Below are positions 3,469-56,636 of a DNA stretch of 64,000 nt, one piece after another. The notes under the pieces were generated by a model that did no database searches, was not told where the DNA came from, and saw only the letters and a program-made list of their open reading frames with translations. The position numbers and the translations under genes are program-made. This stretch comes from Chthonomonadales bacterium. GTDB lineage: Bacteria; Armatimonadota; Chthonomonadetes; Chthonomonadales; CAJBBX01. Numbering within the stretch: the stretch's first letter is position 1; each line of letters begins with the position of its first letter. The DNA is taken from the NCBI GenBank assembly GCA_020849275.1, contig JADLGO010000064.1, positions 6,289-70,288 of the forward strand, given 5' to 3'.

Positions 3469-3705
3469 CCGCTTCCGACCTGGTTGGCTCCTGTGCGCGA
3501 CCTCACCCCGTCGGGCTCACAGCGACGGTATGCGCAGGCAGTTCGGCGAGACCGCACGGCATAGAGGCTGGTTTCGGAGGACGACTGGAAGCCAGAGCGC
3601 GTGGATCCCTTGTGGTCGTCGGCACCGTGACTGGTCGACGCTCACGAGCATCAGACTACCCCCGCCGACCTCCTTGTACTGCGGTCAAAGGCTGCGCTGC
3701 CCCAG

Positions 3706-4491
3706 CTATGCAGGAGGCGGTACGCTCCATACGTGCAGGCGGTTCTCGAAGCCGCTCTCGACCATCCAGATCTCGTCCTCGCCGTTGACGACCTCCAGGA
3801 TGGCGCGAACAAAGAGCTTCTCGAAGAAGAACGCTACCTGCCCAGCCTCCGCTGCGCTCTCGCACGGGAATATGAACCGCGTGACGGCGGTCGTCTCATC
3901 AATCAGGTAGCGCGACGGATCGGTCAACGCCTCCTGTCTGGGCTTGAGGCCTCCCGCGCGGAAACGCCCGCTTACATGGTAGATCGAATACCCACCGAAC
4001 TTGCGCCCGATCCACTCGAGGACACCCTGTCTGTACTTATCATTATCTGCTTCATCGCGTGGAAACACCTTCTCAATGTCCTTCTGAGAGATCGTATCGA
4101 GTTGTACGTCGAGGGTGTCCTTATAGAATAGCGAGTCGAGAACACCGCGAAGCGCGTTTTCGTTCGAGAGTGGCATAAAGAACTCGTAGATACGAACGAT
4201 GGTGTGTACATTGTGCTTATAGATCTCAACTGCACGCCGCACCTGAGTCACATGTCGCTGAAAGGAGGACCAATCCGCGAAGCGGCTGAAGGCGTCACTA
4301 ACCCGAAAGGCAACTTTGTTCCCATCAACCTCCAGAACCAGTCGGAGAAACTGTTTGGACCAGTACGTAGCAAAGCTTGTTACACTCCAGTCAGTCTTAT
4401 CCCGTAAGTCCTCCTTCTTGAAAGGCTTCTTTGAATTCCAATGCTCAACTAGAAACTCAAATGCTCTGCGCTGATTGGTGTCAGAAGGCAT
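3706..4491 (-). CDS. Hypothetical protein (261 aa), third gene of the cassette operon; no family recognised
   Basis: ATG at 4489-4491 with GAGGGA 6 nt upstream, 24 nt after the methyltransferase stop. This is the lowest-GC gene in the window. Non-repetitive, balanced amino-acid composition (MPSDTNQRRAFEFLVEHWNSKKPFKKEDLRDK...), so it looks like real coding sequence. Confidence 0.75.
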   Translation of the reverse strand: MPSDTNQRRAFEFLVEHWNSKKPFKKEDLRDKTDWSVTSFATYWSKQFLRLVLEVDGNKVAFRVSDAFSRFADWSSFQRHVTQVRRAVEIYKHNVHTIVRIYEFFMPLSNENALRGVLDSLFYKDTLDVQLDTISQKDIEKVFPRDEADNDKYRQGVLEWIGRKFGGYSIYHVSGRFRAGGLKPRQEALTDPSRYLIDETTAVTRFIFPCESAAEAGQVAFFFEKLFVRAILEVVNGEDEIWMVESGFENRLHVWSVPPPA

Positions 4492-4515
4492 GGTGAGTCC
4501 CTCGATTAGCTTGCT

Positions 4516-5400
4516 CTACCCCATCGACCTATCCGTGCATTCCGGAGGATAGTTGCGGATGATCAACTCTGGGACCTTACCCCGCGCATCGGCCTTGGAA
4601 TTGACTGTCCGCGTCGCGAAGACGCATTCGACATCGCCATCGCGATCACCGCCATAGTGGCTATAGAGCTGCCGGATCAGCGGTGTGTCCGAGTTTGAGA
4701 GCATCGCATAGGTGCCTCGATTGGTGAGATCATCGAAGACGTCGCGGAGCCGAGTCTGGTCTGCTTCTCCGAAGCCTGTGTGGTGATACGCAGTGAACCG
4801 CGAGGTCGCTGATACGGGGTGATACGGTGGATCGAGGTAGACCATGTCGTCTTTACGCGGTTCCGCGAGTACCTCGGAGAACGGCGCTGTACGGATCTCG
4901 ACTCCTTGAAGGACCCTCGCGGCGGCGCGCAGATTGGCCTCATCGACGATGGCGGGGCGCCGATGGCGACCGAATGGAACATTGAACCGGCCAGATCGGT
5001 TCTCGCGGTAGAGGCCGTTGTAGCAGGTCTTGTTCAGATAGATGACGCGCGCCGCGCGAGCGGCGATGTCGAGCGTACTCGCGTCTTTGTCCCGGATCCC
5101 ATAGTAGTAGGCTTCCTCGTACCGGTGCTTCCGGAGTTCCTCAATCACGAGGTCCACCCGGTCGCGCAGGGCGAGGTAAACATCCACGAGGGCCTGGTTC
5201 ACGTCCGATAGAAGCGCGTGCCGGAGCCTGCCCAGCGATGCCAACTCGAAGAAGAGCGCCCCGCCACCCACGAATGGCTCGAAATAACGGTCGAACGTCG
5301 ATGGCACGCGCGCGATTAGCTCGGAGAGGAGTTGGCCTTTGCCTCCTGCCCATTTGAGCACGGGGCGGGCCCGCGGCGCACCATTCGACTCATGTGGCAT
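4516..5400 (-). CDS. Dam/D12-class N6-adenine DNA methyltransferase (alpha-type motif order)
   Basis: LKWAGGKGQLL, the SAM motif YFEPFVGGGALFF, then the catalytic VYLDPPY near the C-terminal third. ATG at 5398-5400 overlaps the upstream nuclease-like ORF by 11 nt. Confidence 0.9.
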   Translation of the reverse strand: MPHESNGAPRARPVLKWAGGKGQLLSELIARVPSTFDRYFEPFVGGGALFFELASLGRLRHALLSDVNQALVDVYLALRDRVDLVIEELRKHRYEEAYYYGIRDKDASTLDIAARAARVIYLNKTCYNGLYRENRSGRFNVPFGRHRRPAIVDEANLRAAARVLQGVEIRTAPFSEVLAEPRKDDMVYLDPPYHPVSATSRFTAYHHTGFGEADQTRLRDVFDDLTNRGTYAMLSNSDTPLIRQLYSHYGGDRDGDVECVFATRTVNSKADARGKVPELIIRNYPPECTDRSMG

Positions 5401-5794
5401 TGGGCTCTAGTCCGAAGAAGAGGGCGAGCCAATCGCCCAGGTCAGCGAGGTCAAGCACCTTCCCAGTCGACAACAGATAGCCTCGCATATTGGCCGAGAA
5501 CCCGGGACCCGCGATGACCACGATCCCTCGGATTGGCCATGCTGCAATGTCGTTGAGCACGGCGGCTATCTTCTCCTCCGCCGACCCCGAAGTGGCCTGG
5601 AACTTGCACTCAACGCCCAGTGCCAGGCGAGTCGTCGGGTGAGTCAGCACGACGTCGATGTAGCGCACCGCGCCCCACACGCGGCGACCGACCCTAACCT
5701 CGATCCTGACTTCGAGGCCGAGGCGCTCGCCCAAGTATACAACCGTCTGCCTCAGGCCGCTCCCACTACTCACCGCCGCAGCTCCCCCAGGCAT
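5390..5794 (-). CDS. Small PD-(D/E)XK-type nuclease-like protein (134 aa), first gene of the cassette operon
   Basis: Track ORF 5390..5827 (TTG) trimmed to the ATG at 5792-5794, with GGAGGGA 6 nt upstream. Motif arrangement is RYIDVVL...(14 aa)...LGVECKF, i.e. D...ExK, followed by SGSAEEK. From memory this resembles the catalytic core of DpnII/MboI-family enzymes; this is unverified. Confidence 0.6.
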   Translation of the reverse strand: MPGGAAAVSSGSGLRQTVVYLGERLGLEVRIEVRVGRRVWGAVRYIDVVLTHPTTRLALGVECKFQATSGSAEEKIAAVLNDIAAWPIRGIVVIAGPGFSANMRGYLLSTGKVLDLADLGDWLALFFGLEPNAT

Positions 5795-6010
5795 CGGCGC
5801 TCCCTCCGTTCGCGTCATCTCCAGCAACGCAAGTCGTTACGTGGGCACCGCGATCGCTGGCGCCGAGAGCGCGGAGTTGCTCCGCTAGGGAATCGTAGCA
5901 CAGGCTGGCAGGTCCGCGACGCCCTACGCGCGTGTAGCTCGTAGGCGAGCCCGACTCGAGCCTGGCCCTGATGTCGTCACATCCCTGCGCGCGGGCCAAC
6001 ATCCGCGTTT

Positions 6011-21239: not shown

Positions 21240-22177
21240 GCGCGCACGCCCCGGAGCCCGTGGACTCGCCGGAGCCGGCGGCGACCGCGGAGCGAGCGCC
21301 GCGTCGCCGCGTACTGCTGACGACCGACTGCGGGACCGAGATGGACGATCAGTGGGCGCTGGCGCACCTGGCGCTCTCGCCGGAGTGGGACCTGGTGGGC
21401 GTCGTGACGACGCACGCGCCCAACCTGGCCGGTTCCGCCGCCGAGCGGACGGCCGAGGCGGCGCGCGAGGTGCTGCGGCGCGTCGCGCCGGGGTGCGGCG
21501 TGGAGGTGCGCGCGGGCTCCAGCGTCCCCCTGCCGGACGCGAGGACACCACTCGCGAACCGGGGCGTCGAGCGCATCCTGGAGCGCGCGGCAGTGCGCGG
21601 GCCGGAAGGGCGCCTGACGGTGCTTGCCATCGGCGCGGCCACCGACGTCGCTTCCGCCCTGCTGGCGGACCCCACGCTGGCGGAGCGGATCGAGGTCGTG
21701 GCGATGGGGTTCCAGGGCCGCAGTGTCGGTGGCGACGAGTGGAACGTGAAGAACGACCCGGCGGCCTGGCGGGTGCTCCTGGGGTCGCGCGTGCCGCTGA
21801 CGGTGGGCGCCGCGGACGTCTGCAAGCGCCGCCTTCTGATGACCGGCGAGCGGGCCTGCGATCGGTTCGCGGGCCGCGGGCCGGTCGGCCGCTACCTCGC
21901 CGACCTGCTGATCGAGTGGCTCGGCGCCAACGGCGCGACGGCCAGCCTCGTCACCGGTCGGTCGGACGCCTGGCCCGTGTGGGACGAGATCGTCGTCGCG
22001 CACCTACTCGGGCTCTCCGCCGTGCGCCGGCATCCGCGCCCCCTGCTCCGCGAGGATCTGACCTTCGGAAGCCGGTCCGACGCGGCCGCGGACCGGGGCA
22101 TCGACTGGATCACGGACGTCGACGATGCGGGCCTTTGGGAGGACCTGGCCGGCAAGCTGCTCCCTGGTGGTCGGTAG
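21236..22177 (+). CDS. Nucleoside-hydrolase-fold protein with a divergent Asp-cluster motif
   Basis: No in-frame ATG near the 5' end. TTG at 21236 overlaps the PhyH stop (TTGA) and has AAGGAGGG 5 nt upstream. VLLTTDCGTEMDDQWALAHL occupies the position of the canonical DxDxxxDD motif. Confidence 0.6.
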   Translation: MSAHAPEPVDSPEPAATAERAPRRRVLLTTDCGTEMDDQWALAHLALSPEWDLVGVVTTHAPNLAGSAAERTAEAAREVLRRVAPGCGVEVRAGSSVPLPDARTPLANRGVERILERAAVRGPEGRLTVLAIGAATDVASALLADPTLAERIEVVAMGFQGRSVGGDEWNVKNDPAAWRVLLGSRVPLTVGAADVCKRRLLMTGERACDRFAGRGPVGRYLADLLIEWLGANGATASLVTGRSDAWPVWDEIVVAHLLGLSAVRRHPRPLLREDLTFGSRSDAAADRGIDWITDVDDAGLWEDLAGKLLPGGR

Positions 22178-24098
22178 GAGCGAGCCGACGCCGCGCGCCG
22201 GCGCGAGTGTCCCCCCGGAGCGCGCGCTGGCGCCCCCCGGCCGTCGTGCGGGGGGTTCGCTCACGGCGGCGGCCTGGGTCGGCGTCGCCCTGGCGCCCCT
22301 CGTCTGCATCTGGGTGTTCCGCGCCGAGATCCTCTACCACTCGGCCGACCTGGCGTCCAACGCGCTGAGCCTTGCGGCGGTGGGGGTGCTGCTCGTCCTG
22401 CTGGCCCTGCGCGCCATCCTCCCGCGCCTTCTGAGCGCCCGCCGCGTGCTGCTGATCTACGCCGCGGTCGCCGGCACGGTGGGAATCTGCACGATGGGGA
22501 TGGTGCAGTTCCTGATCACCACTCTGGCCGCGCCGTTCTGGTTCGCCAGTCCGTCCAATCGCTGGCAGGAGTTCCTGCCGCTGATCCCGGCCTGGGCCGC
22601 GCCCCGGTCGCCCGAGGTGGTGCGCGGGTTCTTTCTTGGCCGCTCCAGCCTCTACGCCCCCGGGGTGTGGCGGGCCTGGCTGACGCCGGCGCTCGCCTGG
22701 GGAGCGTTCCTGGCCGCGCTGCTGGCGGCACAGTACTGCCTGGCGCACCTCTTCTACCCGCGCTGGGCGCGGCAGGAGCGGCTCGCCTTTCCGGTGGTGC
22801 AGGTGCCCTTGGCGCTCGTGAACGCAGGCGCGTCCGGCCGCGGCGCGCTGCTCGCCGGCGCCGGGATCGCGCTCGCCGTGCAGGGGCTCAACACCGTCCA
22901 TCACGCCGTGCCGGCCGTGCCGGGGCTGCGCGTGCTGCCCGTGGAGTTCGGCTCCACCCTGCCGGAGCCGTGGAACGCGGTCGGCACGCTGTGGTACAGC
23001 TTCTACCCCTGCATCATCGGCCTTTCGGCGCTCGTGCCCACCAACATCCTCTTCTCGTGCGTGTTCTTCTTTCTCCTGACCAAAGGCGAGAACGTGGCGG
23101 CGCAGGTCTGGGGCCTGCGGCAGGTCGGGCCGGCCGGCGCCGGATTCCCCTACGGCGGCGAGCAGGCGCAGGGCGCCGTGCTGGCGTTGGTGCTCGTGAT
23201 CGTCTGGTCGGCCCGCGCTTCGCTGCGCGCCTCCCTTCGGCGTCCGACGGACCGCGCCGCCTGGGCGGTGCTGGCCCTCGCGACCGCGGCCCTGTGCGGC
23301 TTCGGCCTGGCCCTCGGCATGCGGCCGGTTTCGGTCGGCCTGCTGTTCGGGCTGTTCCTGCTCTTCATGCTGGGCTGCGCCTGGCTGCGGGCGGCCGTCG
23401 GGCCGGTGTGGAACCCGGGCAACGATGTGGCCTGGTGGGTGCGCGGCGTGGCCGCCGGCGGCCTGACGCCGGCCGACGGCGTCGGGTTGGCCTACCTGCG
23501 CTGGTTCTCGTTCGGCGATTGGCGGGCGCATGGCCTGCCGACGTACGCGGACATGATGCGGCTCTCCGAGGCGGCCGGGATCCCCCGGCGGCGGCTCGCC
23601 GGCGTGCTGGCGGCGGGCTCGCTCCTCGGAATCCTCGCCAGCCTGTGGGTCGCGCTGGACGTCTACTACCGCTACGGGGCCGCCACGGCGCTGACCGACC
23701 CGTGGCGCACCTACCAGGGGCGTCTCGCCTTCGAGAATCTGCGCTCGCAGATGGACGGCGTGGCGCCCGCGCCGGACCTGCCGCAGTGGGAGGCGGCCGC
23801 GTTCGGCCTCCTCGCGGTTCTGCTGCTGCAGGGCGCCAACAACCGGCTGCTCTGGTGGCCGTGGCACCCGGCGGGGTTCGTGATGGCGCAGACCGGCTCG
23901 CTCGAGTGGTTCTGGTGCCCGATGGCCATCGCGGGCGTCGCCAAGGCGCTGATCCTGCGCGCCGGCGGCATGCGCCTCTACCACCGCGCGCTGCCCTTCT
24001 TCGTCGGCCTGATCCTGGGCGACTACGCCCTCAGCGTGGCGCTGGCCCTCGTCGGCGCCGCGCTGCGTCTACCCATGTACAAACCCTTCCCGATCTGA
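22125..24098 (+). CDS. Large polytopic membrane protein (at least 12 predicted TM segments), family unknown
   Basis: A long run of hydrophobic helices, e.g. AAWVGVALAPLVCIWVF, LLIYAAVAGTVGICTMGMVQFLI, ILFSCVFFFLLT, VSVGLLFGLFLLFMLGCAWL. The start is uncertain: ATG 22125 overlaps the upstream gene by 53 nt, and GTG 22167 is an alternative. Confidence 0.65.
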   Translation: MRAFGRTWPASCSLVVGRSEPTPRAGASVPPERALAPPGRRAGGSLTAAAWVGVALAPLVCIWVFRAEILYHSADLASNALSLAAVGVLLVLLALRAILPRLLSARRVLLIYAAVAGTVGICTMGMVQFLITTLAAPFWFASPSNRWQEFLPLIPAWAAPRSPEVVRGFFLGRSSLYAPGVWRAWLTPALAWGAFLAALLAAQYCLAHLFYPRWARQERLAFPVVQVPLALVNAGASGRGALLAGAGIALAVQGLNTVHHAVPAVPGLRVLPVEFGSTLPEPWNAVGTLWYSFYPCIIGLSALVPTNILFSCVFFFLLTKGENVAAQVWGLRQVGPAGAGFPYGGEQAQGAVLALVLVIVWSARASLRASLRRPTDRAAWAVLALATAALCGFGLALGMRPVSVGLLFGLFLLFMLGCAWLRAAVGPVWNPGNDVAWWVRGVAAGGLTPADGVGLAYLRWFSFGDWRAHGLPTYADMMRLSEAAGIPRRRLAGVLAAGSLLGILASLWVALDVYYRYGAATALTDPWRTYQGRLAFENLRSQMDGVAPAPDLPQWEAAAFGLLAVLLLQGANNRLLWWPWHPAGFVMAQTGSLEWFWCPMAIAGVAKALILRAGGMRLYHRALPFFVGLILGDYALSVALALVGAALRLPMYKPFPI

Positions 24099-28877: not shown

Positions 28878-29848
28878 GCGGGGCCGGCCGGGCCGCGCGC
28901 GCGGCGACCCTCGTGGCGGCGAGCGGCAGCGTGCTGTTCGCCTTCTCGGAGCGGCTGTTCTGGTCGTTCTGGCGACGCGGCGACACTCCGGGCGAGTTGC
29001 TCATCACCTGGCTCGCCTACTGCCTGCTTGCCTGGATCTTCCTGGCGATCGTGCGGGCCTGGCGCGTCGACGGCCCGTGGCCGCTCTTTCTGGCCGGCGC
29101 CGTCTATGGCTGGATCGGCGAGGGGGTCCTGGTGGACACGCTCTACGGCGGGCCGGGCAACCCGCTGCCGCTCTCCATCTCGTGGACCGGCCTGGCGTGG
29201 CACGCGCTGCTGAGCGTGTGGGTCGGCTGGTACGCGCTGCGCCTCGCGCTCACGGCGGGCCCCGCCACGCGGGCCGCCGGCGTCTGCGCGGCGATCGGCG
29301 CGGGCTGGGGCGCCTGGGCGCTCTGGTGGCCGCGGGAGCCCGAGGGGATCGTCTCGGTCGGCGTGGGCGCGTTCGCCTCCCATGCGCTCTTCGTGTGGGC
29401 GTTGCTGAGCGCCGCCGCGTGGGCCTGGGGCGCGGCCGGAGCCGACGCCTTCCGGCCGGGGCGCGGGCAGCACATGGGCCTGGCGCTCCTCGTGCTCGCC
29501 TTCTTCGGGCTGGTGCGGGCGCCCGTCACGCCGGCGGCCGCCGCCGTGCTGCCGCCGCTGCTCGCGCTCTGCTGGCTGGGCCTGCGCGCTCACCGACGCG
29601 TCGCCTCCGGGCCGGACCTGCTGGACGTGCTCTCCAAGCCGGTCCCGCCCTTGCGGCTGCTTGCCCTGGCAGCGATGCCCGCGGCGGCAATCGCTGTCTA
29701 CGGCGCCGGGCGCGCGGCGGGGCTCGCGCCGCCAACGAACGTGGCGGTCTACCTGGTCACCACGCCGCTCGGCTTCGCGTGCTTCGCGTGGGCGCTGCTC
29801 GTGTGCATGCGCGGGCGGGCCGGGCGCCCGGCCGCCGGCGCCCCGTGA
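28874..29848 (+). CDS. Trp-rich polytopic membrane protein (324 aa), family unknown
   Basis: ATG 28874 overlaps the rhaT stop (ATGA). Part of track ORF 28277..29848. Repeated hydrophobic helices (WLAYCLLAWIFLAIV, LAWHALLSVWVGWYAL, GAGWGAWALWW, LALLVLAFFGLV). Confidence 0.6.
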   Translation: MSGAGRAARAATLVAASGSVLFAFSERLFWSFWRRGDTPGELLITWLAYCLLAWIFLAIVRAWRVDGPWPLFLAGAVYGWIGEGVLVDTLYGGPGNPLPLSISWTGLAWHALLSVWVGWYALRLALTAGPATRAAGVCAAIGAGWGAWALWWPREPEGIVSVGVGAFASHALFVWALLSAAAWAWGAAGADAFRPGRGQHMGLALLVLAFFGLVRAPVTPAAAAVLPPLLALCWLGLRAHRRVASGPDLLDVLSKPVPPLRLLALAAMPAAAIAVYGAGRAAGLAPPTNVAVYLVTTPLGFACFAWALLVCMRGRAGRPAAGAP

Positions 29849-29964
29849 GCGCCAACGGGCTCTCGGCCGGGGAGGGCCGGACCCACGCGCGGCCGACGGC
29901 GCTCGCCCGTAGCCCTTGCGCGCCCGGCAGCGGCAGGGCGCATGTGAACCCACGGGAGACCATC

Positions 29965-32646
29965 ATGCCCATCGTGCCGTTCGGCCCTTGCGTGCTCCTG
30001 GCCCTGGCGCTGTTCCTGCTGGCGTCATGCGCGTCCGACGCGTTCGCGGACGAACGGGTGGTTGTCTCCAACGCGGCCTTCCGTCTGGAGGTGTACTGCG
30101 CCGCCGGCGACGTGCTCGCCACCCTCACCGACCTGCGCTCCGGGCGCCGCCTGGCGGACGGGCCCGTGCTCTACGCGGCCACGCGCGAAGGCGTGCGCGC
30201 GGAGGGGCTGGAGGGAGCCACCGCGCGCGCCGCCGCAGGCCGGCTCACGGTGCGCGGCCGCCTGGCGGGGCTGGAGCTGACGCAGACCTTCACAGCCGTG
30301 CGCGGCAGACCGTGGCTGGAGGAGCGCATCGCCCTCCGCAACCCGGGCCGCTCCGGAGCGCGCCTGGAGGACCTGGCGATCGGCCTGGGCCGTCCCCTGA
30401 TCGACGCCGCGGGCCGTCCCGCCGCCGACCTGGCGGCCGACCGCTGGATCGCGGTCCCCTTCCGTCACCGCGCAACGGACCCGAAGGGGTTGCGCCGCGA
30501 CTACGGCGCGGCCGACCTCGGCAAGGGCGCCGGCCACGGCCTCGTGAGCGGACCGGAGCAGTGGCCCCAGGACGGCCCGCGCCGGCTCTGGCTCTCCGAG
30601 GGTTGGGCCTGGACGCATGGCGGCGAGACGGTGGGCCTCTTTCGCTACTGCCAGGAGCACCTTCAGTTCAGCGCACTCTCGCCGGAGACCGGCGTTCTCG
30701 GCACTCGCCTGCGCTTCGGAGGCGCCTGGATGGCCGGCGGCGAGCCGGCCGCGCTCGGACGGATGGCCGGCGGCGTCCGCGTGGACCTGGGCCTCACGCG
30801 CTACGCGGCCGTGCGCGGCGGCTGGGCGGAGGCAGCCCGCGCCTTCCGCGACCTGCTGGACGAGAAGGGCTGCCGGTTCCCCGCGGACTACAACCCGCCC
30901 GTGCACTGGGAGCAGCTCTACAACATGGAGGGCGCCTGGAACGACCGGCCTCACCGCTACACCCTGGCGGCCATCGAGAGGGAAGCCGCGCTCGGCCGCG
31001 CCTACGGCTGCGAGGCGATCTACCTGGACCCGGGATGGGACACGGCCTTCGGAACCTTCCTGTGGGGCGAGGACTGGCTGGGGCCGCGCCGGGCGTTCGT
31101 GGACCGAATGCGGCGCGAGCACGGCCTGGAGCTGGCGCTGCACTGCCCGCTCGCCACGTGGATGTCGGGACCTCTGAGCTGGGGCATCGAGGCCGTGGAG
31201 AGCTGGCCGAAGGCGGGGCTCCGCCGCGACCCGCGCGCCGCCAACGGCGACCCGCCGCCGGTGCCGGCCGTGGTGGACGGCCGGCGCAACCTGGCGCTCC
31301 TGCCGGACGCGCGCGCCTCGGCGTCCTCGGTGCTGGACGGCGGGAGCTGGCCGATCCACCAGGTCGCGCACCTGGCCGACGGCTGGTACGGCAACACGGG
31401 GAGCTGGATCGCCGGGACGGCGCCGGCCTGGGCCGAGATCGACCTTGGCGCCGCCTACCGCGTGGGCGAGGTGCGGCTGGGCAACGACCACAGGGGTCAG
31501 TATTCGGACCGCGCGGCCACCCGGCTTCGCGTTCGGGCCACCGAGGACGAGTCGGGAGACTCCGGTTGGACGACGGTGCGCGAGGTCGGGCCGACCCGGC
31601 TGGCGGGAACCGCCGCGTTCGCCTTCTCGCCCGTGCGCGCCCGGCGGATCCGCGTGGAGATCCTGGAGGCCGCCGACGGACTGCCACGACTGGACGAGAT
31701 CGAGGTGCTCGAGGCGGACCCCGCGCCGCCGGCCGAGGCCGCCGAGCACGAGCGGCGCGCGCGCCGCGGCCCGAAGCCCCCGCCCGCCGGCGCGGCTGGA
31801 CCCCGGGTCTGCCTGGGCTCGCGCCAGTATATCGACGAGGCCGCGAAGCGGCTCATCGCCAACTGCGACGACGGCGCCGTTTTCCTGATGCTCGACGGCA
31901 ACTGGTGGAGCGGGGACTGCATCGACCCCGACCACGGCCACCCGATTCCCTACCGCTGGGAGGACCACATACGCGCCAACCTGGAGCTGGCGCGGCGAGT
32001 GCACGCTCGCCATCCCCGCGTGCTCATCGAGATGCACGACATGATCGCCGGCGGCAGCACGGCGCGGCCCACGCCCGTCTACTACAAGTACGGCCTGCCG
32101 GGCAGCTTCGACGAGAACTGGGGCCTGGAGTTGATGTGGGACCCGATGGCGGACCTGCGCGAGGGCCGGGCCGAGGCGCTCTACGACTACAACCTGGGCT
32201 GCAATATCCCGGTCTACCTGCACATCGACCTGCGCAAGGACAACCGCGCGTGCGTGGTGCTATGGTGGTACGCTTCAACGTGTCGGCACCTGGGCATCGG
32301 CGGCACGCATGCCGACCCGGCGACGGCGGCCGCGCAGCAGGCGGCCATGCGCCGCTATCGGGAACTGGAGCGCTTCTTCAAGCGCGGCGAGTTCGTGGGG
32401 CTGAGCCCCCAGGTGCACGCGCACGCGCTGCCGGCCGAGAACGCCGTGGTGCTCAACCTGTTCAACCTCTCCGACACCTCGCGCGCGGTGACAGCGGAGA
32501 GCCCGCTGGCGTCGCTGGGTCTGGATCGCGCGGAGCGCTACGCCGTGATCGGCGATGGCGTGAACGTGAGTGACGGGGTGCTGCGCGTGCGGCGCGAGAT
32601 GGCGCCGTGGTCGGCGGAGGTTGCGCTCGTTCGGCCGGCGCGCTGA
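29965..32646 (+). CDS. Secreted GH36/GH27-like (alpha-galactosidase-like) TIM-barrel protein with an inserted discoidin (F5/8 type C)-like domain
   Basis: Track ORF 29077..32646 trimmed to ATG 29965 (signal MPIVPFGPCVLLALALFLLASCAS). Barrel motifs GCEAIYLDPGWD and GAVFLMLDGNWW. Between them is a galactose-binding-like segment of about 140 aa (AWAEIDLGAAYRVGEVRLGN...IRVEILEAADGLPRLDEIEVLE). Confidence 0.6.
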   Translation: MPIVPFGPCVLLALALFLLASCASDAFADERVVVSNAAFRLEVYCAAGDVLATLTDLRSGRRLADGPVLYAATREGVRAEGLEGATARAAAGRLTVRGRLAGLELTQTFTAVRGRPWLEERIALRNPGRSGARLEDLAIGLGRPLIDAAGRPAADLAADRWIAVPFRHRATDPKGLRRDYGAADLGKGAGHGLVSGPEQWPQDGPRRLWLSEGWAWTHGGETVGLFRYCQEHLQFSALSPETGVLGTRLRFGGAWMAGGEPAALGRMAGGVRVDLGLTRYAAVRGGWAEAARAFRDLLDEKGCRFPADYNPPVHWEQLYNMEGAWNDRPHRYTLAAIEREAALGRAYGCEAIYLDPGWDTAFGTFLWGEDWLGPRRAFVDRMRREHGLELALHCPLATWMSGPLSWGIEAVESWPKAGLRRDPRAANGDPPPVPAVVDGRRNLALLPDARASASSVLDGGSWPIHQVAHLADGWYGNTGSWIAGTAPAWAEIDLGAAYRVGEVRLGNDHRGQYSDRAATRLRVRATEDESGDSGWTTVREVGPTRLAGTAAFAFSPVRARRIRVEILEAADGLPRLDEIEVLEADPAPPAEAAEHERRARRGPKPPPAGAAGPRVCLGSRQYIDEAAKRLIANCDDGAVFLMLDGNWWSGDCIDPDHGHPIPYRWEDHIRANLELARRVHARHPRVLIEMHDMIAGGSTARPTPVYYKYGLPGSFDENWGLELMWDPMADLREGRAEALYDYNLGCNIPVYLHIDLRKDNRACVVLWWYASTCRHLGIGGTHADPATAAAQQAAMRRYRELERFFKRGEFVGLSPQVHAHALPAENAVVLNLFNLSDTSRAVTAESPLASLGLDRAERYAVIGDGVNVSDGVLRVRREMAPWSAEVALVRPAR

Positions 32647-48690: not shown

Positions 48691-50292
48691 CTATATGTTC
48701 GCCAGCTCGCCGAAGTACTCACGGTCCTCGTTGTACCCTCCCTCTCCTTCGCCGACGCTCCGGATGGATTCGACCAGCTCGATCGCCCTCACCCACTTGA
48801 CCATCTTGAAGCCAAGCTGGTTCTCCACGCGCAGGCGCACCGGCGCGCCGTGCAGCTTGCCGAGGGGAGCGCGGTTCATCTCGTCGGCCAGCATCGTGAG
48901 CGGGTGGCTGGCGTCACGCAGGGAGAGGCTGTCGTAGAACTCACCTCCCTCGCTGCCCTCGCCGTAGGAGTAGAAGACCACCGCGCGCGCCTCCGGTTTC
49001 GGCCGGGCCCGCTTCAGCACTTCCGCCAGGGGCACCCCGCCCCACTCCGCGATGCCCGACCAGCCCTGGATGCAGTGGTGCAGGGTGATCTGCGTTCTGC
49101 GGGGCATGGCGCGCAGGTCGGCCAGCGACAGCTCCAGCGGCTCCTCCAGCAGACCGAAGACCCGCAGGCGGTAGTCGTCAAACCCTTGCTCCTCCAGTTG
49201 CGTCCACTCACCCGACGTCGGCACCTTGCCGTTGGCCCAGAAGTACGGGGAGATGTCGGCGGGCGCGAACTCGGCCTTTGGCGCCGCCCGGTCCAGCAGC
49301 AGGCTCATCACCGGCGTGACGATGGCCTTCGCCGCGTGCTGGACGGCGCGCGGCCGCTTCCAGGCCAGCCAGTGGGCGGCCGCGTTGACCGCGACCACCG
49401 CGGCGATCCCCACCAACCCCAGCACCCACCCGATCGGAAGCGTGTTGTCGGTGCCCATGACGATGTGGTTCATGTTTCTGGCGAACCCGGTGATGGCCAC
49501 CATCGCCACGTGCGCGATCGTGAAGGCCACGAAGCTGAGCATCACCAGGAAGTGCAGCGAGCGTCCGATCTGGCGGTTGCCCGGCAGCTTGGGGTACCAG
49601 CCGAACCGGTTGGTCAGCGCCGGTGACATCGAGGGACCTGTGAGAATCGCCAGGGGCGCCAGGATGAACACCACGCCGAAGTAGGTGAGCTGCTGGAGCG
49701 CGTTGTAGCGAAAGAACCCGTTGGGCTCTGTAGGCAGATGGAACGTCGCGTAGTGCACGAAGACGGCCCAGGCGTCGGGCACGATGCTCCAGGAGACGGG
49801 CGTCAGCCGTCGCCACTGGCTGCCGCTGAGCAGCAGGACCACGAAAACAACGCCGTTGACCACCCAGAACAGCACGCTGAGGAAGTGCCAGTGGCGCGCC
49901 ATGCCGATCGTGTGGCGTCCCCCCGGCAGGCCGATCCAGGGCGAGAGGGCGAGGGAATCGTCCTTGGCCGTCCACACGCGGTCGCGCGGCACCACCACGG
50001 GCGTCAGGCGAAGCCACTCCGTGCCGGGCGTGCAGTGCAGGTTCCAGTAGAGCCGGGGGTGGTCCATCAGGACCTGCGCGCCGCTGCGGATGAGCAGGAC
50101 CAGGAACAGGAAGTTGACGTAGTGCGTGATCCGCAGCCAGGCTGGAAACCCCTGGGGCGCGCCGACCGGAGCCGGCTGCGCGCCGGGCGGGATGGCCGGC
50201 AGCCCGAACACCGCCCACTGGAAGTAGGCTCCGGCCACCGCCAGCAGCACCGGCGCGACGAACACCAGCAGCGTTCTGGACTGAACTCGCAT
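48691..50292 (-). CDS. Fusion protein: b-type cytochrome membrane domain + sulfite-oxidase-family (YedY/MsrP-like) molybdopterin oxidoreductase domain
   Basis: N-terminal about 330 aa has TM helices carrying conserved His (RITHYVNF, ARHWHFLSVLFW, SLHFLVMLSFVAFTIAHV). The C-terminal about 190 aa has ITLHHCIQGWSGIAEWGGVPL (Mo-ligand Cys context) and LGFKMVKWV. The ATG lies 3 nt after the nuoN stop. Confidence 0.75.
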   Translation of the reverse strand: MRVQSRTLLVFVAPVLLAVAGAYFQWAVFGLPAIPPGAQPAPVGAPQGFPAWLRITHYVNFLFLVLLIRSGAQVLMDHPRLYWNLHCTPGTEWLRLTPVVVPRDRVWTAKDDSLALSPWIGLPGGRHTIGMARHWHFLSVLFWVVNGVVFVVLLLSGSQWRRLTPVSWSIVPDAWAVFVHYATFHLPTEPNGFFRYNALQQLTYFGVVFILAPLAILTGPSMSPALTNRFGWYPKLPGNRQIGRSLHFLVMLSFVAFTIAHVAMVAITGFARNMNHIVMGTDNTLPIGWVLGLVGIAAVVAVNAAAHWLAWKRPRAVQHAAKAIVTPVMSLLLDRAAPKAEFAPADISPYFWANGKVPTSGEWTQLEEQGFDDYRLRVFGLLEEPLELSLADLRAMPRRTQITLHHCIQGWSGIAEWGGVPLAEVLKRARPKPEARAVVFYSYGEGSEGGEFYDSLSLRDASHPLTMLADEMNRAPLGKLHGAPVRLRVENQLGFKMVKWVRAIELVESIRSVGEGEGGYNEDREYFGELANI

Positions 50293-50295
50293 AGC

Positions 50296-51738
50296 TTACA
50301 CCCCGATGCACGAACGGATGAGGGCGATGAGCGGCGACGGGTAGACGCCCAGCCACACCAGCAGCAACGCGAGCGCCGCCAGCGCGATGGCGCCGGGCAT
50401 CGCCATCGCCGGCGCGGGAGGTCGAGCATCGAGGGCCTGCTCCGGGTCGCTGTAGACCGCAACCACGATGCGCAGGTAGTAGAACAGGCCGATGACGCTC
50501 GTCACCACCAGCACCAGAATGAGCCACCACAGCGCCACGCCCGCCCCGGACGCGACCAGGTAGAACTTGCCGATGAACCCGGCCGTCAGCGGGATGCCGG
50601 CGAGCGAGAGCAGCATCCCGGTCAGGACCACGGCCAGCCACGGCCGGCGCGCGAACAGGCCGCGGAGGTCCTCCATTCGGTCCGCGTCGCGCTCACCGTC
50701 CGACAGCACGGCGATCACCCCGAAGGCGCCGAGCATGGTGACGAAGTAGGCGGCCAGGTAGAAGGTGGCGGCCGTGATGGCCAGCGCCCCGCCGGCCAGC
50801 GGCGCAACCAGCAGGTAGCCGAGGTGCGCGACGGACGAGTAGGCCAGGATGCGCTTGACGTTGTCTTGCAGCAGCGCGAGCAGGTTCCCCATCACCATCG
50901 AGGCGACCGCCAGGATGGCGAACACGGTGAAGAGCGCCCCGTGACCCTCGTGGATTCCGATGCCCATGTAGAGGCGCAGGAGCACGGCGAACACGCTACC
51001 CTTGGAGACGGTCGCCACGAACGCGCCCGTCGGAGCCGGGGCGCCCTCGTAGACGTCGGGAATCCAGAGGTGGAACGGCGCCACCGCCAGCTTGTAGCCA
51101 ATACCGATCACCAGCATCCCGATGCCGGTCAGCAGCAGAAGCGCATCGGGGCCGGCGGCGCGGCCCACCGCGCTCGCCAGCGCCGCGATCTCCATCGTCC
51201 CCGCGGCGGCGTAGACCAGCGCCATGCCGAACAGGAGGAACGCCGCCGAGGCGGCGGCCAGCACCAGGTACTTCAGGCCCGCCTCCGCGCTGCGCCGGCT
51301 CGCGCGGGGAAAGGCGATCAGCGCGTACAGCGAGACGCTCAGCACCTCCAGGCTCAGGAAGAACGAGGCGAGATGCGCGCTCGCGGCAAGCCCGGCCGAG
51401 CCCAGCGTCGCCAGGAGCAGGAGCACGTAGAACTCCTCGCGTTGGCCCGCTTGGCGCTCGAGGTACGTCCAGGAGAGCGCTGCCACCAGCAGCGCCGCCG
51501 CCAGGATCAGGCCGATGTAGAGGAGGGCGAACCCGTCGAGGACGAAGAGCGGCGTGACCTGGCGGGCTCGCGCGCCGGCGGACACGGGCAGCATCGCGAA
51601 CGAGGCGGTCAGCCCGGCCAGCGTCAGCGACGCGGTCAGCACGTGGCTGCGGTGAAGCCCGATCGCCAGCAGCACCAACACGACGGCGCCGGCCAGCACC
51701 AGCAGCGGCAGTAGAGCGATGGCGGCCTGCCCGGTCAC
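50296..51738 (-). CDS. nuoN: NADH-quinone oxidoreductase subunit N
   Basis: Track ORF trimmed to the GTG at 51736-51738, overlapping the nuoM stop (GTGA). VTGQAAIALLPLLVLAG... resembles E. coli NuoN. Confidence 0.9.
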   Translation of the reverse strand: MTGQAAIALLPLLVLAGAVVLVLLAIGLHRSHVLTASLTLAGLTASFAMLPVSAGARARQVTPLFVLDGFALLYIGLILAAALLVAALSWTYLERQAGQREEFYVLLLLATLGSAGLAASAHLASFFLSLEVLSVSLYALIAFPRASRRSAEAGLKYLVLAAASAAFLLFGMALVYAAAGTMEIAALASAVGRAAGPDALLLLTGIGMLVIGIGYKLAVAPFHLWIPDVYEGAPAPTGAFVATVSKGSVFAVLLRLYMGIGIHEGHGALFTVFAILAVASMVMGNLLALLQDNVKRILAYSSVAHLGYLLVAPLAGGALAITAATFYLAAYFVTMLGAFGVIAVLSDGERDADRMEDLRGLFARRPWLAVVLTGMLLSLAGIPLTAGFIGKFYLVASGAGVALWWLILVLVVTSVIGLFYYLRIVVAVYSDPEQALDARPPAPAMAMPGAIALAALALLLVWLGVYPSPLIALIRSCIGV

Positions 51739-53273
51739 CGGGAATCCCCCGAGCGCGCGGCCGGCGCCGCGCGCGCCACGGCCGGCGTGGATGGGCTGCC
51801 CGCGACCCGGCGCAGGCCGCCGATCGACTGCCGAAAGGTGTCCATGACGGGTTGAGGGTAGAGCCCCAGCCACAGGATCACCACCGTCAGCGCCGCGATC
51901 ACCGCCACCTCGCGAGCGTTGAGGTCCGGCACGCGCCAGTCGTGGTCGTTGGGGCCCTGGAAGACACGTTGCACCATCCAGAGCGCGTAGACCGTCGAGG
52001 TGATCAGGCCGAGCGAGGCGATGATGGCCGCTGGCGGACTGACCTGGTAGGTCCCCAGCAGCACCAGGAACTCACCGAGGAAGTTGCCCAGGCCCGGCAG
52101 CCCCATGGAGGCCAGCGCGAAGAGCATCGTGGCGGCGCCCATGCGCGGCGCGGTCTGCCAGAGGCCCTGCATTCGGCCCATGTCGCGCGTGTGCGTGCGC
52201 TCCTGGAGCGCGCCCACCAGAATGAAGAGGGCGCCCGTGCTGACGCCGTGGCAGAGGATCTGCAGCATCACGCCTTGCAGCGCCAACTCGTTGCCGACGA
52301 AGGCGCCGAGAAGGACGAACCCCATGTGGCTCACGCTCGTGTAGGCCACCAGGCGTTTGAGGTCGGTCTGTCCGAAGGCCAGCAGCGCGCCATACAGGAC
52401 GCTCGCGACGCCGAGGGCCATCGCCACCGGCGCCCACCACGCGGCCGCCGTGGGGAAGAGCGGGATGGCGAAGCGCAGCAGCCCATAGGCCCCCGTCTTC
52501 AGCATGAGGCCGGCCAGCACCACGCTGCCCGCCGTCGGCGCCTCCGTGTGGGCGTCAGGCAGCCACGTGTGCACGGGCACCGCGGGCAGCTTGACGGCGA
52601 ACGCCGCGAAGAAACCCAGCATTAGCCAGACGGCCAGGGTGGGCGACATGCGCGTGCCCATCAGCTCGGCCAGCTCGAACGTGTAGATGCCGGTCTGGCT
52701 CGCGTGCGCAAAGTAGAGCCCCAGGATGGCGACCAGCATGAGCAGGCCGCTCAACTGGGTGAACAGGAAGAACTTGGCGGCCGCGTACACCCGGCGCTCG
52801 TGCCCCCAGATCGCGATCAGAAGGTACATGGGGACGAGCATCATCTCCCAGAAGAAGTAGAACAGGAACAGGTCCTGCGCCAGGAACACGCCGGTGACCC
52901 CGGCCAGCACCCACAGCAGGTTGAAGTGGAAGAAGCCGACCCGCTCGCGGATGTCCGTCCACGAGGCCGCCACCGACAGGACGCCCAGGAAGCCCGTGAG
53001 GAGCACCAGGAGCAGACTCAGGCCGTCGATCGCCAGGTGGAAGCGGATGCCGAGGTCGGGGATCCACGGCGCGTTCAGCGCCGCCATCCAGTCCGCGCGA
53101 TCGGCGAGCACCGGCTGCCCGGCGTGCCCCGCCCACAGCGCCAGCGCGAGCAGCAGCTCGGCGGCCGTCGCCGCGAGCGCGATCCAGCGCGACCAGGTCG
53201 AGCTCCAGCGGCCCGCGATCCAGGCCAGGATGCCGCCCACTGTCGGGGCGACCAGCAGCCATACCAGCATCAT
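51735..53273 (-). CDS. nuoM: NADH-quinone oxidoreductase subunit M
   Basis: Trimmed to the ATG at 53271-53273 (ATGA overlap with nuoL). MMLVWLLVAP...IRFHLAIDGLSLLLVLLTGFLGVL...FLFYFFWEMMLVPMYLLIAIWGH, close to E. coli NuoM. Confidence 0.95.
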   Translation of the reverse strand: MMLVWLLVAPTVGGILAWIAGRWSSTWSRWIALAATAAELLLALALWAGHAGQPVLADRADWMAALNAPWIPDLGIRFHLAIDGLSLLLVLLTGFLGVLSVAASWTDIRERVGFFHFNLLWVLAGVTGVFLAQDLFLFYFFWEMMLVPMYLLIAIWGHERRVYAAAKFFLFTQLSGLLMLVAILGLYFAHASQTGIYTFELAELMGTRMSPTLAVWLMLGFFAAFAVKLPAVPVHTWLPDAHTEAPTAGSVVLAGLMLKTGAYGLLRFAIPLFPTAAAWWAPVAMALGVASVLYGALLAFGQTDLKRLVAYTSVSHMGFVLLGAFVGNELALQGVMLQILCHGVSTGALFILVGALQERTHTRDMGRMQGLWQTAPRMGAATMLFALASMGLPGLGNFLGEFLVLLGTYQVSPPAAIIASLGLITSTVYALWMVQRVFQGPNDHDWRVPDLNAREVAVIAALTVVILWLGLYPQPVMDTFRQSIGGLRRVAGSPSTPAVARAAPAARSGDSR

Positions 53274-55177
53274 GAGAGCACCACGATGGCAATGATAACG
53301 ATGGCGCCGAACGCGACCGCGGCCGCGTACCAGCGCACGCTCCCTGTCTCCGTGCGGCGCAGCAGCCGCCAGAGTGCCTGGTTCGCCCAGGCGATGCCTG
53401 CGTAGGGCAGGTCCACCACATCGCCTCGGTTGGCCCGCGCCAGCCACATGTACGGCCACACGATCAACCGGTCGTAGAGCCAGTCGAACCCCCAGCCGGC
53501 GAACCAGAACCGGTGCAGGGCTGCGCCCGCCGGCGTGCGCGCGGCCGCCTCCACCCGGCGCGGCGCGCGCAGCCACAGCGCATATGCCAGTCCGATGCCG
53601 GCGATGCACACGATGGCGGCGATCACCTCGAACGCCCACTCCTGGCCAGCCGCCTCGGGTCGAACACCGGCGGCCGGCAGCGCCGAGCGCAGCAGTCCGG
53701 AGAAGAACGGCTTGTCGCCCAACGGCTCGGGTATCTCAACGAACCCGCCGACCACGGAGAGGATGCCCAGAACGATGAGCGGCGCGAGGATGCTCGCCCC
53801 GGACCCGCGGATGGGCAGGGCGCGCTGCGTGGCCTCCCGAGGGGCGCCAAAGAAGGTCATGAACACCATGCGAAACGTGTAGAGCGAGGTAAGAAACGCT
53901 CCGGCGATCCCGGCGGCCCACAGGACGGGCCCTCCGATGGGCGAGGACCAGGCGCGCCAGAGAATCAGGTCCTTGCTGTAGAAGCCGGCCGTGACCAGCG
54001 GCAGCGCGGCCAGCGAGCAGGCCCCGGCCAGAAACGTCCAGAACACCACCGGCAGCTCGGCGCGCAGGCCGCCCATCTTGCGCATGTCGTGCTCATGGCG
54101 CACCGCAAGAATGACCGCCCCCGCGGCCAGGAAGAGCAGCGCCTTGAAGAAGGCGTGGGTCATGAAGTGGAAGATGGCCGCCGACCAGGCGCCCACTCCC
54201 AGCGCCAGGAACATGTAGCCGATCTGGCTGACGGTGGAGTAGGCCAGCACGCGCTTGATGTCGTACTGCGTGAGCGCGCTGAAGCCGGCCAGCAGCAGCG
54301 TGGCGGCGCCGATCACGGCCACGGCGAGCTGCACGGGCGGCGCCAGGGCGAAGAGGACGTGCGTCCGGGCGATGAGATAGACGCCGGCCGTGACCATGGT
54401 CGCGGCGTGGATCAGCGCGGAGACCGGCGTCGGCCCGGCCATCGCGTCCGGCAGCCAGGTCTGCAGCGGGAGCTGCGCCGACTTCCCGACGGCGCCCCCC
54501 AGCAGCAGGGCCGCCGCCGCCACGGGCAGGGCCGAGCCCATTGGCCAGTCCGCCGCCGCGCGGTGCATCAGCTCCTGGATGTGCAGCGTGCCCAGGTGGG
54601 TGAGCAGCAGGAACAGCCCGATGGCCATGGCCGTGTCGCCCACGCGCGTCACCACGAACGCCTTGCGCGCCGCGTAGCCGTTGGCCGGATCGCGGTGCCA
54701 GAAGCCGATCAGAAGGTAGCTGCAAAGGCCCACCCCCTCCCAGCCCAGGTACAGCAGGAGCAGGTTGTCGGCAAGAACCAGAGTCAGCATCGATCCCACA
54801 AAGAGGTTCATGTAGGCGAAGAAGCGCGCGTACCCGTCCTCGTCGTACATGAACCCGGCCGAATAGACGTGGATCAGCAACCCGACGAAGCACACGACCA
54901 GCGCCATGATCAGCGACAGGGAGTCCAGGTAGAAGGCGATGCCTGGCGCGAAGCCGCCGACCCGGAACCAGGTCCAGAGCGTCTCGGTGTAGGCGCCGCC
55001 GGGCGGCGGGTGCGCCAGGTAGCGGATGGTGATCAGAATGGCCAGGAGGGTCGAGACGCCGACGGCGCCCGACCCGACGACGGCCGGGATGGGCCGCCGC
55101 CAGCGGCTCCCGAAGAGCGCCAGCGCCGCACAGCTCACGAACGGTAGAACCGGTATCAGCCAGAGCAGCGAAAGCAC
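53270..55177 (-). CDS. nuoL: NADH-quinone oxidoreductase subunit L
   Basis: GTG start. LLLLYLGWEGVGLCSYLLIGFW, typical NuoL. Confidence 0.95.
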   Translation of the reverse strand: MLSLLWLIPVLPFVSCAALALFGSRWRRPIPAVVGSGAVGVSTLLAILITIRYLAHPPPGGAYTETLWTWFRVGGFAPGIAFYLDSLSLIMALVVCFVGLLIHVYSAGFMYDEDGYARFFAYMNLFVGSMLTLVLADNLLLLYLGWEGVGLCSYLLIGFWHRDPANGYAARKAFVVTRVGDTAMAIGLFLLLTHLGTLHIQELMHRAAADWPMGSALPVAAAALLLGGAVGKSAQLPLQTWLPDAMAGPTPVSALIHAATMVTAGVYLIARTHVLFALAPPVQLAVAVIGAATLLLAGFSALTQYDIKRVLAYSTVSQIGYMFLALGVGAWSAAIFHFMTHAFFKALLFLAAGAVILAVRHEHDMRKMGGLRAELPVVFWTFLAGACSLAALPLVTAGFYSKDLILWRAWSSPIGGPVLWAAGIAGAFLTSLYTFRMVFMTFFGAPREATQRALPIRGSGASILAPLIVLGILSVVGGFVEIPEPLGDKPFFSGLLRSALPAAGVRPEAAGQEWAFEVIAAIVCIAGIGLAYALWLRAPRRVEAAARTPAGAALHRFWFAGWGFDWLYDRLIVWPYMWLARANRGDVVDLPYAGIAWANQALWRLLRRTETGSVRWYAAAVAFGAIVIIAIVVLS

Positions 55178-55178
55178 A

Positions 55179-55487
55179 TCACCCTCGCATCTCGCTCGCC
55201 GCGTCGACGTCGATGGTGCCGAAGCGCTGGTAGACCAGCAGCACCAGCGCCAGGCCCACGCAGACCTCGGCCGCCGCCATGGCCAGGATGAAGAGGAACA
55301 TCACCTGGCCGTCGGGCTCGCCCCAGCGCGCGCCGGCGACGATGAAGGCCAGGCCGGCGGCGTTGAGCATCACCTCGATCGCCATCAGCACGAACAGCAC
55401 GTTGCGCCGCACCAGCACGCCGAGCAGCCCCAGTCCGAACAGCACCCCCGCCAGGATCAGCCCCGCTTCCATCGGCACCGTGGCCAT
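55179..55487 (-). CDS. nuoK: NADH-quinone oxidoreductase subunit K
   Basis: 102 aa, three TM helices. [22 protein letters not shown]...[12 protein letters not shown]. Confidence 0.95.
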
Positions 55488-55497
55488 CGTGCTCCCC

Positions 55498-56064: not shown

Positions 56065-56074
56065 GGCTTCGCTC

Positions 56075-56590: not shown

Positions 56591-56636
56591 GTGCAACCCT
56601 CCTCCGGCCGCGCCCGGCGCCGCCGGGCCGACCGGC

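Follow-up and report, generated by a model that had tools for sequence, protein, structure and literature searches.

The stretch of Chthonomonadales bacterium DNA analyzed here (64,000 nucleotides (nt) of contig JADLGO010000064.1, referred to below as the window) encodes on its minus strand, at 3706..4491, a conserved, unannotated, two-domain protein of 261 amino acids (aa) that we call T. The open reading frame (ORF) starts with ATG, the N-terminus of its translation (MPSDTNQRRAF) agrees with the start of the T homologues, and a Shine-Dalgarno-like GAGGGA lies ahead of it at 4498-4503. An N6-adenine DNA methyltransferase is encoded next to T, a linkage that recurs in one of the two clades of the T family, and our tentative interpretation is that T may be the restriction or effector subunit of a compact, mobile cassette of the restriction-modification (RM) type.

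The methyltransferase gene (4516..5400, minus strand) lies directly upstream of T and encodes a 294-aa, DpnM-like member of the Dam family with a DPPY motif (PF02086, 1.1e-58; TIGR00571, 1e-82, 277.8 bits). The closest solved structure is that of DpnM (2dpm, 1.5e-66), followed by that of E. coli Dam. The 24-nt gap between the methylase stop and the T start (4492..4515, minus strand) holds the ribosome-binding-like GAGGGA and no terminator-like site or hairpin, and co-transcription of the two genes is plausible from this layout. The cassette begins upstream of the methylase with a gene (5390..5794, minus strand) that overlaps the methylase start by 11 nt and encodes a small, 134-aa PD-(D/E)XK nuclease (PF20472, PDDEXK_11; Pfam 2.7e-17) with intact D...ECK (D...ExK) and AEEK motifs and no DNA-binding domain of its own. 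This gene was called on every metagenome contig that covers the position, but it had been overlooked in an earlier note on this DNA, which correctly placed a DNA methyltransferase directly upstream of T on the same strand. In a test for the motifs of the PD-(D/E)XK superfamily the product of 5390-5794 passes and T fails. Among the cassette proteins only the methylase matches PADLOC-DB v2 (MTase_II, 1.2e-90); the nuclease had no match in that library, and a literature search on PF20472 and comparable systems returned nothing relevant.

These three genes, and no others, occupy a low-GC island of about 2.3 kb (3600..5900 in the GC profile). The GC content of the T gene is 0.536 versus 0.713 for the whole window; the minima among all 786-bp windows of the 64 kb start at 3951-4011 (0.518-0.520), and the lowest 786-bp window outside the island stands at 0.639. 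At third codon positions the GC content is 0.66 in T and 0.91 in the flanking host gene. The encoded protein differs accordingly from the products of two neighboring host ORFs, with a combined Ala, Arg, Gly and Pro fraction of 0.23 (host, 0.45) and a combined Lys, Phe, Tyr, Asn and Ile fraction of 0.25 (host, 0.08-0.14). The flanks, read on identical metagenome contigs, place the insertion between a DUF6259 gene and a cellulase gene. The exact island protein was found again on 28 metagenome contigs, and all of those covering the flanks carry the three-gene cassette between the same two genes. Because T lies in this GC island and belongs to a large conserved family, we regard the gene, by these compositional and comparative signs, as foreign and genuinely coding, in agreement with the earlier note, whose placement of the ORF, lowest GC of the window and balanced, un-host-like composition were all accurate.

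The note had also called T an orphan, which is apt for its annotation but not for its relatives. A search of 5.8 billion proteins returned 848 homologues at E<=0.01, nearly all of 255-300 aa, every one of them "hypothetical" or unnamed and none with a Pfam domain; the 41 homologues that were aligned are about 50% identical to T. When 1.84 billion representatives were searched exhaustively with a profile, the family amounted to 494 clusters at 50% identity. The 80 loci found in one-genome-per-species contigs belong to Acidobacteriota, Binatia, Myxococcota, Gammaproteobacteria, Verrucomicrobiota, Chloroflexota, Spirochaetes, one cyanobacterium and Asgard archaea. Distant phyla and archaea are reached at 38-57% identity, which fits the pattern expected of horizontally exchanged RM genes, and by tblastn T matched none of 72,556 plasmids and none of 50,697 phage genomes. 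Searches of Pfam, NCBIfam, PADLOC and PHROGs with T yielded nothing usable, and those of the PDB, by sequence and by profile, only chance matches (ORC5, 0.21; pyrophosphatase, 0.17). When 98 diverse members were scanned individually at E<=10, the only hits were weak ones to winged helix-turn-helix types (DUF3489 in eight members; Crp; sigma-r4) and to DUF1949 (three members). Longer members of the family contained no Pfam domain; by eye they comprise three fusions described below, one protein with an unknown C-terminal extension, and one with an unknown 355-aa N-terminus. In the last of these (P0228, 541 aa) the unrelated N-terminal region, again without a Pfam match, replaces the winged helix, an architecture which shows that the C-terminal domain of T should be able to work with other N-terminal modules.

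An AlphaFold2 model of T, built from a 42-sequence alignment, has a predicted local distance difference test score (pLDDT) of 90.2 and a predicted template modeling score (pTM) of 0.66, and because of the latter it suggests two domains in a loose mutual orientation. Residues 1-85 (4237..4491, minus strand) follow the a1-b1-a2-a3-b2-b3 order of a winged helix (helix 5-20, strand 24-25, helices 26-32 and 37-51, hairpin 52-54/61-64), and the domain modeled alone retains a pLDDT of 86.6. Its top 50 Foldseek matches in the PDB are all winged-helix proteins (AspA, the MarR family, HlyU, ROQ), with weak statistics (E 0.05-0.2, probability 0.8-0.95, template modeling (TM) score 0.4-0.5). Topology and matches together bear out the winged-helix-type module proposed in the earlier note, at about 85 aa. 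The domain is basic (isoelectric point (pI) 9.8), and we infer that it binds DNA. Its recognition helix is formed by residues 37-51, in which T42, Y43, W44, S45, K46 and Q47 are nearly invariant among the methylase-linked members; T42, Y43 and K46 are conserved in that group only.

The remainder of T, residues 95-261 (3709..4209, minus strand), is an acidic (pI 5.1), putatively catalytic alpha/beta domain. Its core is modeled as a ferredoxin/GlnB-like b-a-b-b-a-b(b) sandwich with a helical insert of about 55 aa after the first strand. Across 98 representatives of 29-48% identity, G167, S169, G175, Y195, E199 and F206 are invariant and E111, D119, D125, Y168, R176, D198, T200, T201, E238, W242 and E245 are at least 90% conserved, and this conservation is present in both clades of the family. 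The best Foldseek match of full-length T in the PDB is the phage S-adenosylmethionine (SAM) lyase Svi3-3 (6znb; E 1.5e-3, TM 0.31 by query and 0.56 by target), with PII, GlnK and CutA next and scoring nearly as well; the best viral matches are small uncharacterized podophage proteins (E 2.6e-5 to 3e-4, TM 0.5-0.63). Library, PDB and Foldseek searches agree with the earlier note that this part of T contains no known nuclease, P-loop or SAM motif. The segment "GYSIYHV...YLIDETT" had suggested GIY-YIG, HUH and AEP-like motifs, but we dropped these ideas as such folds are absent from the Foldseek results.

To compare the surroundings of T, ORFs were called and clustered at the 80 loci, representatives were annotated with Pfam and NCBIfam, and local hidden Markov models were run against all six frames. 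In a midpoint-rooted neighbor-joining tree the family splits into clade A (35 loci plus the window) and clade B (32 loci). An N6-adenine methylase lies within 2 kb of T at 30 of the 35 clade A loci (26 D12, nine PF01555, some with both; the two occur together in L026, L028, L033 and L034), and DPPY is present in every sequence of the PF01555 neighbor cluster. Three of the five methylase-free loci are on truncated contigs; the other two read AbiEii-PDD-T-S and T-DarT, where PDD denotes the PF20472 nuclease and S a small protein described below. Only adenine methylases are linked to T, never C5 methylases. The adjoining DNA methyltransferase that is expected beside a restriction gene, and expected to be kept in its relatives, is thus a feature of clade A but is found at just 4 of 32 loci in the sister clade. 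The earlier note had asked whether homologues always neighbor D12-class methyltransferases: the linkage to adenine methylases is real in clade A, but the methylase is not always D12, since PF01555 members are found at 9 of the 35 loci.

Gene order varies while the linkage is kept. With M for the methylase, the window reads PDD-M-T and other loci M-PDD-T-S (L003), T-(S-M)-PDD (L011), M-S-T-PDD (L023) and T-S-M-PDD (L098). PF20472 homologues lie within 2 kb of T at 19 of the 35 clade A loci and are missing from 16, and three loci have an HNH nuclease instead. PF20472 and HNH are unrelated, and that, from clade to clade, either can take the position between M and T fits accessory nucleases arranged around a constant T. 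Modules of methylase and T without a recognized nuclease also occur, as M>T in Asgard archaea, as M>T>S in Pyrinomonadaceae, where S is the only small protein added, and as a convergent T> <M pair, 1 nt apart and with no recognized nuclease, in a Hydrogenedentes genome; a convergent pair of restriction and methylase genes is a classic type II layout. The cassettes of clade A lie in mobile and defense surroundings, which include an integrase with Mrr_cat and SNF2, toxin-antitoxin genes (HicAB, ParE, BrnT), AbiEii and DarT.

In several assemblies the methylase or T gene is split into two ORFs (L096:6856-7576, L048, L070, L012, L076), and we suspect assembly frameshifts rather than pseudogenes. 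For this reason the broken methylase beside an intact T in L096 could not be used as a sign that T is harmless, as T itself is split in L048 and L070.

The protein S is a second small novel component, of 92-140 aa, with the pattern WLRxNGY...RRNWWEILAG...FPVLxAAQxRQG and a basic tail. It is present at 27 of the 35 clade A loci, usually immediately downstream of T (e.g., L003:8877-9272), and had no Pfam or PDB match; a search of the window for an S homologue found none. S is fused to T in P0169, P0208 and P0241 and to the methylase in L005 (8914-10179) and L011 (8887-10077). Since S can be fused to either one, we suggest that T and the methylase share it as a partner, and the fusions point to a three-way complex. 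Neither T nor S belongs to a described family or to a known restriction fold.

Clade B, whose 32 loci are mostly from Chloroflexota, is different. Here methylase linkage is confined to basal branches (L041 and L036/38/40), which comprise three D12-HNH-T cassettes and one convergent PF01555-RAMA methylase. Seven loci from Anaerolineae share a pcrA-T-NUDIX arrangement, in which T is preceded by a PcrA-type helicase gene and followed directly by a NUDIX gene; L049:5775-9304, for example, has a helicase that matches TIGR01073 at 831 bits, a NUDIX gene whose start overlaps the stop of T, and no methylase in the vicinity. The T copy in this arrangement may be a domesticated form. The remaining contexts consist of unrelated housekeeping genes and are not conserved. 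Because methylase linkage extends, in the midpoint-rooted tree, over the whole of clade A as well as the branches at the base of clade B, the housekeeping contexts look derived.

The site methylated in the window is probably GATC, as DpnM and E. coli Dam are the nearest relatives of the methylase. The beta-class PF01555 partners are most like CcrM by sequence, and the CcrM site is GANTC. Upstream of the cassettes overall GATC is not enriched (24 observed versus 19.8 expected, P 0.2), whereas three PF01555-type cassettes from two phyla (L001, L002 and L023) have GATC clusters within 150 nt upstream, sharing the 10-mer CGATCCGATC (11 sites versus 1.6 expected). These clusters may reflect methylation-sensitive regulation, and they hint that the CcrM-like methylases of the three loci also act on GATC. 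No convincing operator or palindrome is shared upstream of 26 cassettes. The words AAACGA/TCGTTT recur in six of the 26 upstream regions, in inconsistent orientation, partly in related genomes and with borderline statistics. Loci with these words are L003, L008, L010, L025, L029, L048, L070 and L079; they partly overlap promoter-like TTGATA/TATAAA and sometimes form an inverted repeat, such as AAACGA-N7-TCGTTT in L008.

Our preferred interpretation, to which we give somewhat less than an even chance, is that T serves as the constant partner of the methylase, a restriction or effector subunit, in a compact RM-like cassette that moves horizontally. The basic winged helix would bind DNA at or near the site protected by the partner N6-adenine methylase, probably GATC in the window, and the acidic C-terminal domain would act enzymatically on unmethylated DNA, damaging it through nicks, cleavage or base excision, with S169, Y195, D198-E199-T200-T201, E111, D119, D125, E238 and E245 as the likely active-site residues. 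The small PD-(D/E)XK protein, replaced elsewhere by HNH, would play an accessory part and convert or complete the lesion, for instance through a second-strand cut, while the methylase would shield the host DNA. The retention of charged and polar C-domain residues down to about 30% identity in both clades is as expected of an active site, and the conservation of the recognition-helix residues only where a methylase is present likewise favors this interpretation. Also in its favor are the linkage to adenine methylases, kept through shuffled gene orders, the modules of methylase and T that lack a recognized nuclease, and the mobile or defense surroundings.

Several observations weigh against it. 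No known nuclease or glycosylase fold or motif (PD-(D/E)XK, HNH, GIY-YIG, phospholipase D, half-pipe) was found in T by Pfam, NCBIfam, PADLOC, PHROGs, the PDB or the Foldseek top 50, and the closest folds to its C-terminal domain are those of ligand-binding or lyase proteins (PII, CutA, SAM lyase). A true nuclease whose catalytic residues are intact is already encoded in over half of the cassettes, and the actual restriction enzyme could be that protein. The partner methylases are of two classes and yet the recognition helix of T is conserved, which makes matched specificity uncertain, and GATC is not avoided in the window (observed/expected 0.94). Finally, 28 of the 32 clade B loci, the seven pcrA-T-NUDIX loci among them, have no methylase nearby, lie in housekeeping contexts and keep the same C-domain residues. 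The earlier note had held that its proposal would fail if homologues occurred mainly outside methylase or defense contexts, and this is the case for one of the two clades. Such loci are hard to square with an unprotected restriction enzyme unless T has been domesticated in them.

A more specific form of the same idea, possible but in our estimate doubtful, takes the C-terminal domain to be an unrecognized catalytic restriction fold, a GlnB/SAM-lyase-like sandwich whose attack on unmethylated adenine-containing sites would consist of nicking, base excision or lyase chemistry and would use none of the known nuclease folds. The winged helix would guide it, and its helpers would be interchangeable small nucleases and S, as a novel adaptor shared with the methylase. 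In Chloroflexota the enzyme would have been domesticated as a methylase-independent DNA-maintenance factor beside PcrA and NUDIX, a course that parallels Sau3AI/MutH.

The alternative that survives best, although we consider it unlikely, is that T is a non-catalytic subunit for DNA recognition or regulation. The winged helix would read a site or its methylation state, the GlnB-like domain would sense a ligand or mediate assembly, and the PD-(D/E)XK or HNH protein would do the cutting; in modules of methylase plus T alone, T would be the reader or regulator of an orphan methylase. A winged helix joined to a PII/GlnB-like domain is a common layout of one-component regulators, and IclR regulators are among the weaker full-length fold matches of T. 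The division of labor also suits the presence beside T of an intact nuclease without a DNA-binding domain at 19 of 35 loci, and of HNH at three others, as well as the lack of a nuclease motif in T and its tolerance without a methylase at 28 loci. However, the strongest conservation in T, at about 30% identity and in both clades, falls on charged residues of the C-terminal domain (E111, D119, D125, D198, E199, E238 and E245), a pattern that one would sooner expect from an enzyme than from a sensor, and cassettes of methylase and T (sometimes with S) that lack a recognized nuclease are frequent and occur in several arrangements. Moreover, T is last in the window operon, unlike controller proteins, and beyond the weak promoter-like AAACGA words no operator-like motif is shared upstream.

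The fold matches raise another possibility, which we judge improbable: that the C-terminal domain is a distant relative of the phage SAM lyases and binds or cleaves SAM or a related adenosyl compound, so that T would couple DNA binding to SAM turnover, for instance in the control of methylation or as a SAM-dependent effector. Svi3-3 tops the PDB matches, the viral matches are led by small podophage proteins comparable in size, and SAM is consumed by the partner methylase. In Svi3-3, a GlnB-like trimer, the ligand is contacted by S50, Y58, E69, S71 and Q104 (PMC7877911), and the invariant Ser, Tyr, Glu and Thr of T are of the same kinds. At the profile level, however, the relationship was not detected. 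In hhalign comparisons the T family aligned with nine T3-type SAM lyases (the T3 SAMase and eight phage relatives) at a probability of only 0.3-0.4% (E 0.15-0.24), and the single-sequence comparison was negative as well (0.07%). PII and CutA were returned almost equally, and we therefore rejected T as a detectable SAM-lyase homologue and place the likeness at the level of a common fold. T also has the 55-aa helical insert and many conserved acidic residues that SAM lyases lack. An alignment by eye of DETT with EEKT, and of a G-x-Y/F-R motif, is unproven and was not relied on.

We give a similarly slim chance to T being mainly a factor of DNA repair or maintenance, a MutH-like helper tied to adenine methylation status for which the RM-like cassettes would be secondary. 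The seven pcrA-T-NUDIX loci, the conservation of the C-domain residues in these methylase-free settings and the linkage of T to adenine methylases alone, never C5 methylases, are what this explanation would lead one to expect. It is opposed by the derived appearance of the housekeeping contexts on the tree, by the fact that clade B contexts apart from pcrA-NUDIX are not conserved, and by the location of the window copy on a foreign island and of its relatives in defense or mobile islands. That T is an RM controller (C) protein was rejected on its size, its winged helix, its last position and the lack of a shared operator upstream of the 26 cassettes.

Some features of the window stand apart from the cassette. 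CTAG is strongly depleted in the whole 64 kb (17 observed versus 99 expected, ratio 0.17) and GTAC moderately (ratio 0.69). Strong AT skew at normal GC marks 22000-24000, 29000-30000 and 50000-58000, with negative values of -0.32 to -0.39 and, over 50000-58000, with values of +0.24 to +0.31 in all but one of eight 1-kb bins; such stretches may be large genes on opposite strands whose composition is biased. A scan for Rfam families (tRNA, rRNA, riboswitch) gave no match above threshold in any part of the window.

The catalytic folds of restriction enzymes are few in number. The T family, which runs from soil Acidobacteriota to Asgard archaea and forms about 500 clusters at 50% identity, is a constant partner of adenine methylases that matches none of the known restriction folds. 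If T is catalytic, it would represent a new restriction chemistry or fold and possibly a new class of reagents. The methylase-free sister clade offers a natural setting in which to test the domestication of a restriction component. Pfam, NCBIfam and PADLOC do not recognize the family, so its cassettes now pass in annotation as orphan methylases with hypothetical proteins.

The cassette as a whole is known in kind, being type II-like with a DpnM-like methylase; what is new is the partner protein T and the S domain. Among the components of known systems, RM controller proteins are also DNA-binding proteins inside RM operons, but they are of about 80-100 aa, have an Xre-type helix-turn-helix and are placed before the endonuclease gene, whereas T has 261 aa, a winged helix, a large conserved acidic domain and the last position in the window cassette. 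DpnI consists of a PD-(D/E)XK catalytic domain and a winged helix (DpnI_C) that reads methylated GATC; it depends on methylation, and no methylase is encoded with it. T likewise pairs a winged helix with an effector domain in what is probably a GATC-methylation setting, and a 164-aa gene with DpnI_C (PF17726; L097:9563-10057) lies 770 nt downstream of a PF01555-PDD-T-S cassette. The domain order in T is reversed, however, and its effector domain is unrelated.

In the heterodimeric type II enzymes BspD6I, BtsI and BsrDI a large DNA-recognizing subunit works with a small catalytic one. The PF20472 protein, a small nuclease without a DNA-binding domain beside a larger protein that has one and a methylase, resembles this arrangement, and the accessory nuclease of our preferred interpretation would correspond to the small subunit of such enzymes. 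As a large subunit, though, T would be without a recognizable nuclease fold, and the small nuclease is missing from 16 of the 35 related loci, with HNH in its place in three. The restriction glycosylases of the R.PabI type have a half-pipe fold, no classical nuclease motif and an N6-adenine methylase partner, and leave strand cleavage to other enzymes. They are a precedent for a motif-less restriction effector paired with such a methylase, although PabI is not among the Foldseek matches of T and nothing in T is evidence of glycosylase chemistry. Svi3-3 and the T3 SAMase, along with GlnB/PII-like proteins, share the ferredoxin-like b-a-b-b-a-b sandwich of the T C-terminal domain (PMC7877911). 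T departs from the SAM lyases in lacking profile-level similarity and in having a helical insert, a winged helix, other conserved residues and a cellular, methylase-linked context.

Systems of the DpnII/MboI/LlaDCHI type, which act on GATC and comprise DpnM, DpnA and DpnB, are close as well. The window methylase is most similar to DpnM, and its cassette is compact with the non-methylase gene last. The DpnII gene set includes D12 and beta-class adenine methylases, and some of the related T cassettes have both. T itself differs, as it resembles neither the DpnII/MboI endonucleases nor any restriction enzyme family in Pfam, and to the DpnII-like plan the T cassettes often add the 134-aa PD-(D/E)XK protein and the novel S.

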